DNA of 64,000 nt from a virus (lineage: Duplodnaviria > Caudoviricetes), in the IMG/VR virus record IMGVR_UViG_3300008740_000001, positions 1-64,000 of that record; one strand, 5' to 3'. The translations under genes were made by a program, and so were the position numbers. Below are positions 18,620 through 32,280 of this stretch, one piece after another; the first letter of the stretch is position 1, and the number at the start of each line of letters is the position of its first letter. Below the pieces are notes generated by a model, which was not told the DNA's origin, made no database searches, and saw only the letters and a list, made by a program, of their open reading frames with translations.

Positions 18620-18985
18620 GTGGGTACAAGTAAACAAGGTAAGTATAGAATCTATTCTACCGCAAAAAAGTTGAAAATTGCAGGAAAAATTACAGAAGAA
18701 TTCGAAGTAATGCTGGCAAATTTGACCCTTGAGGAATTAATTGCCCTTAAGCTGGAAAACGCAGCAAAAATGATCAATAATAAACCATACGGTCTTGATT
18801 TGTGGCATGCCATACCCAGAATCGCGAGAGATGCAGTTCTTAAATTTGCCATCTCAGCGGCGCAAACGCAGCAGGATGCATGCCGGATCTTAGGTATTAA
18901 GCCCACGCAGCTACGAAAATTAAAAAACATCTACGGCATCGAGGAATATTTTGAAAAAAAGATCGACAAATCGCCAAAGGTGTGA
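18620..18985 (+). CDS. Fis-like helix-turn-helix protein
   Basis: C-terminal QQDACRILGIKPTQLRK resembles the Fis/NtrC HTH. Confidence 0.6.
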   Translation: MGTSKQGKYRIYSTAKKLKIAGKITEEFEVMLANLTLEELIALKLENAAKMINNKPYGLDLWHAIPRIARDAVLKFAISAAQTQQDACRILGIKPTQLRKLKNIYGIEEYFEKKIDKSPKV

Positions 18986-18991
18986 TATATT
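18963..18991 (+). promoter_or_regulatory. sigma70-type promoter driving the ncRNA/tmRNA region
   Basis: TCGACA(18963-68)-N17-TATATT(18986-91) with extended -10 TG. Confidence 0.7.
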
Positions 18992-18999
18992 GTTAATAC

Positions 19000-19305
19000 A
19001 AGTAAAGGTAAGACACTTAATGATTATGCACACTGAATTTTGGTGACGGATCAAGAGGTCTGATCGGCTGCTTTAAGCGTAAATTAATTTAGGTTCTATA
19101 TCCGTACAGAACCTAGCTGATGTGCACTAAAGGATAAAAAACCCATTAGAAGGGCAGCAAATTAAAATCGGACTGGCAGGGTGACGAGCGAGGAGAGTCA
19201 CTCAGTCGATCAGTACCTCCGCTCACATGCTTGAAATGATTATGGGATGAGCACGTAATTTGAGGATATTTTAAATTTAGGCTAGGCACAACCCCTTACT
19301 AGCGA
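19000..19305 (+). ncRNA. candidate structured ncRNA (unassigned)
   Basis: No ORF; 11-bp helix 19060-70/19203-13, 8-bp hairpin 19090-97/19108-15, 7-bp hairpin 19179-85/19197-203; promoter upstream. Confidence 0.55.
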
Positions 19306-19314
19306 GAAGATGAG

Positions 19315-19557
19315 ATGTGGCAGTTTTGGAAATGGAATGGAAGATATATTCAGGGCGATTTGGTAAGTAAACACAAAACCAAAACTGCTGCAATTTCAAA
19401 AGCAAAAAAGGAATTGGGAAACGACGTAATATTTACAGAGAGTACATGGAAAAAAGAAGAAGTTATTTGGATAGATAGCAAAACCCATACTCCCATGGGG
19501 ATTATTTGTAAATCAACGGGGGCGAAACGGTCTCGACAGGGTAAGAAAGGAGTATAA
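19315..19557 (+). CDS. small basic hypothetical protein; 3' end overlaps tmRNA
   Basis: 80-aa ORF; last 40 nt lie inside the tmRNA 5' end. Confidence 0.55.
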   Translation: MWQFWKWNGRYIQGDLVSKHKTKTAAISKAKKELGNDVIFTESTWKKEEVIWIDSKTHTPMGIICKSTGAKRSRQGKKGV

Positions 19558-19938
19558 GAGTGCAAGTGGTCTAACGAAACAGAAGACCCTAAATTCAGTT
19601 TCAAAAAACATAATTGCCAATAACAATTATTATTTCGAAGAAAGCCGCTTAGCGGCCTAATCGGCGGGGTTGTCAATGACCTTGTTTCCCAACATTGAAT
19701 AACAGGCGGAGTCCTGCGAAAACAAAAAACCACAATGGAGACCTCGGCTTTATGAAAACATCTTCGGATGGACTACCTCACTAAATGTGAGAAAGGTGAG
19801 TGGGGCGCAACAGGTCAGTAAGCGCCGGAGGACGACTGACTATCTTTGTTAATTTGTGATAGTAAATTGACTAAACTTGTGAACGACTTGATACTGGACT
19901 TATTTTGGACGCGGGTTCGACTCCCGCCGCCTCCACCA
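19518..19938 (+). ncRNA. ssrA: tmRNA, tag (A)ANNNYYFEESRLAA*
   Basis: 5' GGGGGCGAAACGGUCUCGAC; 3' GCGGGUUCGACUCCCGCCGCCUCCACCA; G3-U70 pair; tag frame 19616-19660 ending LAA-stop. Confidence 0.95.
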
Positions 19939-19942
19939 ACTT

Positions 19943-20017
19943 GCGGGTGTAACTCAGTGGTAGAGTATTACGTTGCCAACGTGACTGTCGCTGGTTCGAA
20001 TCCAGTCACCCGCTCCA
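19943..20017 (+). tRNA. tRNA-Gly(GCC)
   Basis: Cloverleaf; anticodon loop UU-GCC-AA; U73; encoded CCA. Confidence 0.95.
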
Positions 20018-31014: not shown

Positions 31015-32280
31015 TTGACAAAAAAGACAATTGTAACCTTATCCGACCATCCATTGAGTCCGTCCGGTGTAGGTACACAAACTAAGTATGTGTTAGAGGC
31101 ACTACTAAAGACGGGCAAATATAAGATCATATCTTTCGGTGGCGCAATCAAACACAACGATTACCGCCCCATCAAGGTAGAGGAGTGGGGTGATGACTGG
31201 ACGGTCTTCCCTGTTAATGGATATGGCGACCATCAGATGATCCGGTCGATCATGAGAACAGAACGTCCAGATTTATTGTGGTTCATGACCGATCCACGTT
31301 TCTTTGGATGGCTCTGGGAAATCGAAGATGAAATTCGCTCCCTGTGCCCCATGTTGTATTATCATGTTTGGGACAATTATCCTCTGCCGGATTTTAATAA
31401 GCGGTGGTACGACTCAACGGATGTCATTGCGTGTATTTCAAAAGTGACGCACGACATTGTTAAGAATGTCTCCCCAGAGGTAGAATCGCATTATCTGCCA
31501 CATGCTGTTGATCCAAACATTTTTAAGACATACTCGCCCGCAGATGTTAAAGAGTTTTCAACTGCAGTGCTGAATGATGGCGACGTTTGGGAAGATAAAG
31601 TAACCTTTTTCTGGAACAATCGAAACGCCCGACGCAAACAAACCGGCTCCGTCATGTTTTGGTTTAAGGAGTTTTTAGACAAGGTGGGTCACGATAAGGC
31701 GCGCCTAATTTTACATACAGATCCTAGAGATATGAACGGCCAAGATTTGGTCGCGATTATCCACAACTTGGGCTTGAACGCCGGCGAAGTCTTGTTATCG
31801 ACTGCTAAGCTCCCTCCTGAGTCTATGGCTCTTATGTACAATATGGCAGATTGTACGATCAATATTGCAGACGCAGAAGGGTTCGGTTTAGCAACGCTAG
31901 AATCACTCTCTTGTGGAACTCCTATCATCGTTAACATGACTGGTGGTTTACAGGAACAGGTCACGGATGGGGAAAACTGGTTCGGTATTGGCATTGAACC
32001 CACATCAAAATGCATTATCGGATCCCAGCAGGTACCATATATTTACGAAGATCGTGTATCTAAAGAGGATTTCCTCAAAGCCTTAGAAGACATCTACAAC
32101 ATGACAGCCGAAGAAAGATTCGAATTAGGACTTCAAGGCAGAAACCATGTCATGACAAATTACAACTTTAGTGAATTTCAAGATTCTTGGAGAGAACTGG
32201 TTGAAAAGACAATGGAATCTCACGGCTCTTGGGAAACTCGAAAAAATTATCAACGTTGGCACTTTATGGAGGTTGCATAA
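31015..32280 (+). CDS. GT4 glycosyltransferase
   Basis: AEGFGLATLESLSCGTPII (ExE7 motif), RNARRK. Confidence 0.9.
   Translation: MTKKTIVTLSDHPLSPSGVGTQTKYVLEALLKTGKYKIISFGGAIKHNDYRPIKVEEWGDDWTVFPVNGYGDHQMIRSIMRTERPDLLWFMTDPRFFGWLWEIEDEIRSLCPMLYYHVWDNYPLPDFNKRWYDSTDVIACISKVTHDIVKNVSPEVESHYLPHAVDPNIFKTYSPADVKEFSTAVLNDGDVWEDKVTFFWNNRNARRKQTGSVMFWFKEFLDKVGHDKARLILHTDPRDMNGQDLVAIIHNLGLNAGEVLLSTAKLPPESMALMYNMADCTINIADAEGFGLATLESLSCGTPIIVNMTGGLQEQVTDGENWFGIGIEPTSKCIIGSQQVPYIYEDRVSKEDFLKALEDIYNMTAEERFELGLQGRNHVMTNYNFSEFQDSWRELVEKTMESHGSWETRKNYQRWHFMEVA

Follow-up and report, generated by a model that had tools for sequence, protein, structure and literature searches.

The window analysed here covers the first 64,000 nucleotides (nt) of a complete virus record of 203,859 bp (IMG/VR record IMGVR_UViG_3300008740_000001), which has direct terminal repeats. 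Near its position 19,000 a 329-nt gap separates a 121-amino-acid (aa) gene with a weak helix-turn-helix (HTH) signature from an 80-aa open reading frame (ORF), here called ORF80, behind which lie the genes of a one-piece transfer-messenger RNA (tmRNA) and a tRNA-Gly (Table 1). The gap is the site of an RNA: 19055-19219 on the plus strand is one copy of an uncatalogued, compact, pseudoknotted RNA family of uncultured marine T4-like phages. The existence of a genuine structured RNA family is practically certain. An initial annotation, made from the letters alone, had described 19000-19305 as a promoter-driven structured RNA of about 300 nt upstream of the tmRNA, with competing helices that would allow two folds. 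Every sequence element that it listed was found in place, the promoter-like site TCGACA-17-TATATT with its TG extension included, and a promoter-preceded, structured, non-coding RNA ahead of the tmRNA is supported; no conserved ORF lies within 19000-19305. The structure is smaller than had been thought, with a conserved unit of about 155-165 nt, and the interpretation as a whole held in part.

Table 1. Features of the locus; positions are those of the window
Feature	Position	Strand	Basis or remark
121-aa gene, weak HTH signature	18620-18985	+	ORF; sub-threshold Pfam HTH_8 and HTH_28 matches; adjacency tallies
Candidate sigma-70-type promoter, TCGACA-17-TG-a-TATATT	18963-18991	+	scan: 10/12 matches, TG present
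P1, 5' strand (19060-70) and lineage-specific extension (19055-59)	19055-19070	+	pairs with 19203-19219
J1/2, variable A/U-rich linker	19071-19089	+	alignments; -10-like hexamer in many relatives
P2 hairpin; family-wide stem 19091-96/19109-14; loop about 12 nt in the family	19090-19115	+	
Pseudoknot, 5' strand UCCG, in P2 loop	19101-19104	+	pairs with CGGA, 19169-19172
P3 domain; stem GCUG 19116-19/CAGC 19155-58 and lineage-specific insert	19116-19158	+	
J3/4; A-rich 5' part, pseudoknot 3' strand (19169-72), near-invariant U.GC (19174, 19176-77)	19159-19179	+	
P4 hairpin, 19180-85/19197-19202; 11-nt loop GAGCGAGGAGA (19186-96)	19180-19202	+	
P1, 3' strand (19203-13) and extension (19215-19)	19203-19219	+	no U-tract after the window copy
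Variable linker	19220-19280	+	conserved only in closest relatives; absent from 'mini' members
P5, separate hairpin, GCUAG 19281-85/CUAGC 19299-303	19281-19303	+	11 nt before ORF80 start codon
ORF80, conserved small basic 80-aa protein	19315-19557	+	3' end overlaps tmRNA 5' end
One-piece tmRNA, tag ANNNYYFEESRLAA	19518-19938	+	ARAGORN; Rfam RF00023, 120 bits
tRNA-Gly(GCC)	19943-20017	+	ARAGORN and Rfam; starts 4 nt past tmRNA 3' end

Covariation and fold of the RNA

The fold is a four-way junction made of a closing helix (P1), a hairpin (P2), a variable domain (P3) and a second hairpin (P4) that abuts P1. The evidence for it lies in compensatory changes among relatives, in two alignments named A9 (48 distinct viral-contig sequences) and A11 (70 distinct metagenome sequences). 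Paired cells make up 86.3% of A9 and 85.8% of A11, against 33-42% and 30-43%, respectively, in controls slid by displacing the partners by 1-3 columns. Pairs changed on both sides number 31 of 33 in A9 and 28 of 33 in A11, counts that are somewhat inflated by the fitting of both alignments to the nested helices of the covariance model. In neither alignment did shuffling, repeated 500 times, yield as high a covariation score or percentage paired as was observed. About 80 cells of A9 are G-U on the plus strand and would be A-C mismatches on the opposite one; the plus strand is therefore the RNA strand.

A pseudoknot joining the P2 loop to J3/4 was spotted by eye and then tested in the fixed alignment register. 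It is absent from the covariance model, yet 83-85% of its cells are paired and 5 of its 6 pairs are compensated on A9 and A11, and it thereby serves as an internal control. Its strands read UCCG/CGGA in the window, GUUCGU/ACGAAC in relative L006, CCUCU/AGAGG in L108, GCCUA/UAGGC in L106 and AUCUAU/GUAGGU in L029.

The long-range helix drawn in the initial annotation, CTGATCGGCTG (19060-70) with CAGTCGATCAG (19203-13), is P1 and is real, all 11 of its pairs having changed on both sides; its extension GAGGT/ACCTC, as read from the alignment, is compensated in relatives L002 and L013. Equally real, and abundantly compensated in relatives, are the two hairpins described at 19090-19115 (TAGGTTCT/AGAACCTA; P2) and 19179-19203 (GGGTGAC/GTCACTC; P4). 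In P2, 90% of cells are paired and 5-6 of 6 pairs are compensated, and in P4 all 6 pairs are compensated in A9. P3 is compensated at 4 of 4 pairs among long-type members (e.g. U-A to C-G, G-C to A-U) and is a short hairpin in relatives of a reduced type, here called 'mini'. No spacer lies between P4 and P1 in the window copy and 0-2 nt do so in relatives, an abutment which suggests coaxial stacking. Invariant nucleotides are concentrated in the P4 loop, a near-invariant purine loop with the family consensus GAGC.A.AG, and in U.GC just 5' of P4. A Shine-Dalgarno mimic in the P4 loop was considered and rejected; AGGAG is present in the window copy and absent from 'mini' loops (GAGCAAAAGAU).

Folding of the single plus-strand sequence gives a minimum-free-energy structure that recovers the long helix and both hairpins. 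Over a 321-nt stretch the energy is unremarkable against shuffles (z -1.17). The 165-nt core, 19055-19219, folds at -51.5 kcal/mol against -37.1 +/- 4.1 for its shuffles (z -3.54), none of 200 of which was as good.

The pairings from which two folds had been derived fared less well. The loop segment GAGCG (19186-90) is complementary to CGCTC (19220-24), but the pseudoknot proposed between them has no counterpart in any relative; the tails 3' of P1 (CTCTTGCCCC, TTTTCTTAC, TTATAATTAT and others) are unrelated to one another. Likewise, GCTGC (19067-71) is complementary to GCAGC (19154-58), but the latter is the 3' strand of P3 and does not compete with P1. GACT (19171-74) and AGTC (19204-07) could pair as far as their letters go, but GACT overlaps the pseudoknot strand CGGA (19169-72) and the pairing is not conserved. 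Neither an expression platform nor evidence of two alternative folds was found.

Beyond the conserved unit, the 3' remainder of the annotated interval consists of the variable linker and P5. The stem of P5 differs between lineages, CTAGG/CCTAG in one being replaced by TGCCG/CGGCA in another (as RNA, UGCCG/CGGCA in the L006 lineage), as read from the alignment with no formal count. P5 (loop GCACAACCCCUUA) stands ahead of the ribosome-binding site of ORF80 and may be a translational operator of that gene; it is absent from 'mini' members.

Distribution and genomic setting of the family

The initial annotation recognised no RNA family here, and Rfam 15 (4227 models) agrees. A covariance-model search of an 11-kb slice gave no match in 19000-19305 at E <= 1; a 331-nt slice searched at E <= 10 gave a single result, a chance match of 15 bits to the opposite strand, and a 'mini' relative matched no family either. 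The catalogue of viral RNAs in PMC10690425 counts 10,006 candidates, 8,495 unnamed ones being from IMG/VR, and the family, absent from Rfam 15, may figure among those unnamed candidates.

Related viral contigs were first reached through the neighbouring proteins, and public assemblies through the ORF80 protein family, a profile of which fetched 74 viral loci. Searching with nhmmer and alignment revealed a conserved core with compensatory changes in the long helix. A covariance model (R1) was made from 8 close sequences and rebuilt (R2) from 12 diverse matches, and R2 recovered lineages outside its training set at E values of 1e-8 to 1e-13 (e.g. the L029, L030, L034 group). Using the P4-hairpin motif with no protein anchor, 29 viral loci and at least 80 metagenome loci were fetched (at least 120 matches). 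R2 confirmed 76 of 80 of these metagenome loci at E <= 1e-3 and found 58 copies in the viral set, among them 28 of the 29 viral loci fetched by motif. Removal of duplicates left 111 distinct copies, a lower bound. Each locus has one copy, and in all 111 the copy is on the same strand as its neighbours.

Other candidates were set aside. A first motif scan (CTGGCANGGNGNNGAGCGAGGAG) added only two matches, both by chance and inside a G+C-rich coding region. What looked like a second copy in the window (31886-32031, minus strand, 20.7 bits, with a P2-like GGGUUC...GAACC) was also judged a chance match, being antisense within a 421-aa glycosyltransferase ORF. A repeat resembling a miniature inverted-repeat transposable element was rejected on the single copy per genome and the covarying internal helices. 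Among bacteria and archaea, with one genome scanned for each of 185,579 species, the motif alone matched 8 times, and the model confirmed none of these. GenBank phages, queried with the window DNA, the 'mini' copy, ORF80 and the HTH protein, returned only tRNA matches or nothing.

The most constant neighbour is the upstream gene, a homologue of which ends a few nt before the RNA in 80 of the 111 distinct copies. In the window this HTH gene belongs to no PHROG family, and neither the PDB, searched by sequence, nor GenBank phages yielded a relative. Downstream, ORF80 follows directly in 34 copies and after one intervening gene in 36, so that 70 of 111 lead into ORF80 and the tmRNA. Others run directly into a tmRNA (11) or a tRNA (5) or into unrelated small genes (18), and in 7 the contig ends. 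In relative L111, for example, about 10 nt separate the end of the RNA from the tmRNA, and no ORF80 lies between. The ribosome-binding site of the next gene lies 8-100 nt beyond P1 and is never inside P1 or sequestered, and the downstream genes encode early-type small proteins and RNAs with no metabolic theme. In the loci that were read (L039, L043, L044, L049, L093; one large lineage), the gene between the RNA and ORF80 is of lipoprotein type and thioredoxin/redoxin-like, about 25-650 nt past the RNA.

The RNA was also sought elsewhere in five complete genomes whose ORF80 has no copy upstream. One has it directly ahead of its tmRNA; in two others it occupies unrelated intergenic positions, and a strong promoter-like site separates it from the next gene. 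Since the RNA is found ahead of such varied genes, it is a portable, self-contained module, heading the ORF80-tmRNA-tRNA unit in most cases but not tied to one downstream gene.

ORF80 itself has at least 50 distinct relatives, a disordered Lys/Arg tail and no Pfam or PHROG family. Its structure model is confident (pLDDT 86), with the order beta-beta-alpha-beta-beta-beta, and matched no PDB fold at E <= 0.001. In every lineage checked the 3' end of ORF80 falls within the 5' portion of the tmRNA gene. Maturation of the tmRNA by RNase P would therefore cut the ORF80 message 5' of its stop codon, and such a cut would yield a non-stop mRNA, a substrate of trans-translation; the logic recalls, by analogy, that of E. 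coli arfA.

Promoters, 3' ends and candidate roles

The candidate promoter of the window, whose -10 region overlaps the stop codon of the HTH gene, is aligned in relative L002 with TAGACA-17-TGcTATAAT. Transcription would start near 18998. From this site to P1 is 68 nt, so that the predicted transcript would include P1, and the arrangement is similar in L100, L093 and L111. With the tRNA-Gly so close behind the tmRNA, this promoter may drive one precursor holding the RNA, ORF80, the tmRNA and the tRNA. Elsewhere the arrangement differs. In 27 of 111 copies a sigma-70-like site uses the 5' strand of P1 as its spacer and has its -10 inside J1/2 (7 were expected from shuffles); these embedded sites include two perfect TTGACA-17-TATAAT (12/12) as well as 11/12 matches, and in many cases the -35 and the stop codon of the HTH gene overlap. 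Perfect or near-perfect embedded promoters of this form were noted in L092, L137, L102-L104, L096 and L113. No promoter is recognisable at >= 9/12 matches in 59 copies. At the other end, a U-rich tail comes right after P1 in 62 of 111 copies. In the window UACCUCCGC follows P1, and the plus strand in 19000-19320 holds no terminator-like site and nothing that qualifies as an intrinsic terminator.

The embedded promoters and the U-rich tails are what would be expected of a directional terminator or insulator, in which P1 would close only in transcripts reading through from the HTH gene and, with the U-tract, would stop them, while transcripts from the embedded promoter, lacking the 5' strand of P1, run on into ORF80 and the tmRNA. 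This is the least probable of the roles considered: it leaves the conservation of P2, P3, P4, the pseudoknot and the invariant loop unexplained, in 59 of 111 copies no promoter could be recognised, and the window copy has its promoter well upstream of P1 and no U-tract.

The same data bear on the main rival, a cis-acting, co-transcriptional leader acting on RNA polymerase or Rho by processive antitermination or insulation of the put, EAR or boxA kind, which would let a largely untranslated, structured tmRNA/tRNA unit be transcribed to its end. Untranslated transcription units are exposed to Rho. The RNA always lies 5' of the unit, on the same strand and no more than about 70 nt away from a sigma-70-like promoter where one is recognisable; the unit that it heads is mostly non-coding RNA (tmRNA, tRNAs), and the domain is uncoupled from the ribosome-binding site. 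The put RNAs of HK022 and the EAR RNA, which act in cis, are likewise promoter-proximal structured RNAs heading a long unit, a likeness of position and possible logic only; no similarity to them in sequence or structure was detected, nor to any other Rfam family. Downstream terminators that would need to be read through were not identified, the U-rich tail of over half the copies looks like termination rather than antitermination, and two genomes have a separate promoter-like site after the RNA. A leader of this kind is thus judged unlikely, if less so than the other rivals.

Autoregulation through leader RNA structures is familiar from gene 32, regA and gene 43 of T4, and a protein-binding translational operator of ORF80, or one bound by the upstream HTH protein, has to be weighed on that analogy. 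The frequent proximity of ORF80 (next or one gene away), its small size, basic composition and disordered tail, the HTH gene adjoining upstream in most copies, and the further covarying hairpin (P5) that the window lineage has 11 nt ahead of ORF80 all fit such an operator. An operator dedicated to ORF80 is disfavoured because 34 copies precede something other than ORF80 (a tmRNA or tRNA immediately in 16, other genes in 18) and many ORF80 genes lack the RNA, two large lineages having ORF80 directly behind the upstream gene with no RNA between. The unsequestered ribosome-binding site and the lack of a match between the ORF80 fold and any known RNA-binding fold count against it as well, and it is considered rather improbable.

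A riboswitch with two mutually exclusive folds, as the initial annotation had it, draws on the aptamer-like size of the RNA, its junction with a pseudoknot and its conserved junction and loop nucleotides. In SAM-I a four-way junction is closed by P1, the P2 loop forms a pseudoknot with J3/4, and P4 lies beside P1. The likeness to SAM-I (S-box, RF00162) is one of fold topology only, established for the present RNA by covariation. RF00162 is not matched, the conserved nucleotides differ, and the family has no shared terminator platform and no sulfur or methionine gene context. Among the SAM families, the Rfam searches gave only a SAM/SAH match of 9.6 bits, against a cut-off of 40 bits, on the opposite strand of relative L111. 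More generally, a metabolite riboswitch is disfavoured because the family shares no platform, whether a terminator or sequestration of the Shine-Dalgarno sequence, the ribosome-binding site is free, some copies abut tmRNA or tRNA genes and so have nothing to switch, and the downstream genes have no common metabolic theme. The alternative pairings and the loop-to-tail pseudoknot on which the two folds depended are not conserved, and no Rfam riboswitch model matches. A riboswitch is therefore very improbable, and the RNA is probably a stable RNA or recognition module instead.

A phage tmRNA with an associated riboswitch has, however, been reported. The marine OM43 phage Melnitz, a myophage, has a predicted glutamine (glnA RNA) riboswitch with a two-piece tmRNA, behind an early promoter (PMC9004378), so that RNA control at phage tmRNA loci has a precedent. 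Both cases have a structured, putatively regulatory RNA physically linked to a phage tmRNA. They differ in RNA family (no glnA match was obtained here) and in position, the Melnitz riboswitch sitting at the 3' domain of a permuted tmRNA and the present RNA upstream of a one-piece tmRNA.

The preferred reading, held about as firmly as it is doubted, is that this uncatalogued family provides a self-contained recognition module heading an early tmRNA/tRNA unit. The promoter at 18963-91 would give an early transcript of which the RNA forms the first approximately 220 nt, followed by ORF80, the tmRNA and the tRNA-Gly. The domain would either be released as a stable small RNA or be kept as a leader, as in the window. 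In relatives, release could come about by termination at the U-tract after P1 or by an RNase P cut at the adjoining tmRNA or tRNA, which the 16 of 111 copies with such a gene directly downstream would permit. The P4 loop and J3/4 would form the surface read by a putative partner, be it a protein, RNA polymerase or the ribosome.

Several points weigh against a recognition module of this kind. The start site, the ends and the stability of the transcript are predictions from sequence. Transcripts from promoters embedded in J1/2 would lack the 5' strand of P1, yet P1 covaries throughout, which sits poorly with one RNA of a single fold; perhaps there are two isoforms. The window has neither a U-tract nor an RNase P site right after P1, and its RNA may simply remain the 5' leader of the ORF80 mRNA. 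In two of the five genomes searched the RNA was not found, and at most ORF80 loci the model found no copy within the approximately 1.2 kb fetched upstream. Many related phages thus keep ORF80 and the tmRNA with no such RNA, which is accordingly not essential to that unit.

Relation to known phage RNAs and significance

The closest analogues by position and by mystery are the stable RNAs C and D of T4 (rnaC and rnaD, species 1 and 2), which are annotated only as 'small, stable RNA'. They too are non-coding, are 119-139 nt long and lie among tRNA-type genes of a T4-type phage. Both are co-transcribed with genes of the tRNA cluster and released by processing, and we know of no function for either. 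Homology was rejected: R2, run with filters off on the T4 tRNA region, matched neither. rnaC has a tRNA-like fold with a T arm, whereas the RNA of the window is a pseudoknotted four-way junction with no tRNA signature. GOLLD and ROOL are likewise structured orphan RNAs that phages carry in clusters with tRNA-type genes, but they are 600-800 nt long against 115-195 nt here, where the fold is a simple four-helix one with no Rfam match.

Two direct links to the tmRNA were considered and rejected. Pairing with the cognate tmRNA, through the P4 loop or the whole RNA, gave energies equal to those of shuffles at inconsistent sites, in an unconstrained duplex fold that is crude. The RNA is not tmRNA-like either: tmRNA models matched only the true tmRNA at 19518-19938 with its flanks, and ARAGORN found nothing in 19000-19305.

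Phage-encoded tmRNAs are common in marine myophages, and we know of no account of how they are expressed and used. The present family, well supported with its at least 111 distinct copies and at least 120 motif matches in marine metagenomes, is tied to the head of a phage tmRNA/tRNA unit. Until a partner is found it is one more orphan structured RNA. To RNA biologists it offers a compact new fold with defined invariant nucleotides, and to those who study phages a way into the early 'RNA-gene' operon of abundant uncultured ocean viruses. More speculatively, and with rather little confidence on our part, it could represent a new class of phage RNA partnering the machinery of translation or ribosome rescue with which it travels, a cofactor or decoy whose invariant P4 loop would be recognised by RNA polymerase, the ribosome, SmpB or RNase P. 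Early in infection this would enable the phage to express or deploy the tmRNA and tRNAs that it carries and, with the overlap of ORF80 and the tmRNA, would provide a built-in sensor of trans-translation. Binding of the RNA to polymerase, the ribosome or a rescue factor, if it occurs, would amount to a new form of viral takeover of translation quality control.

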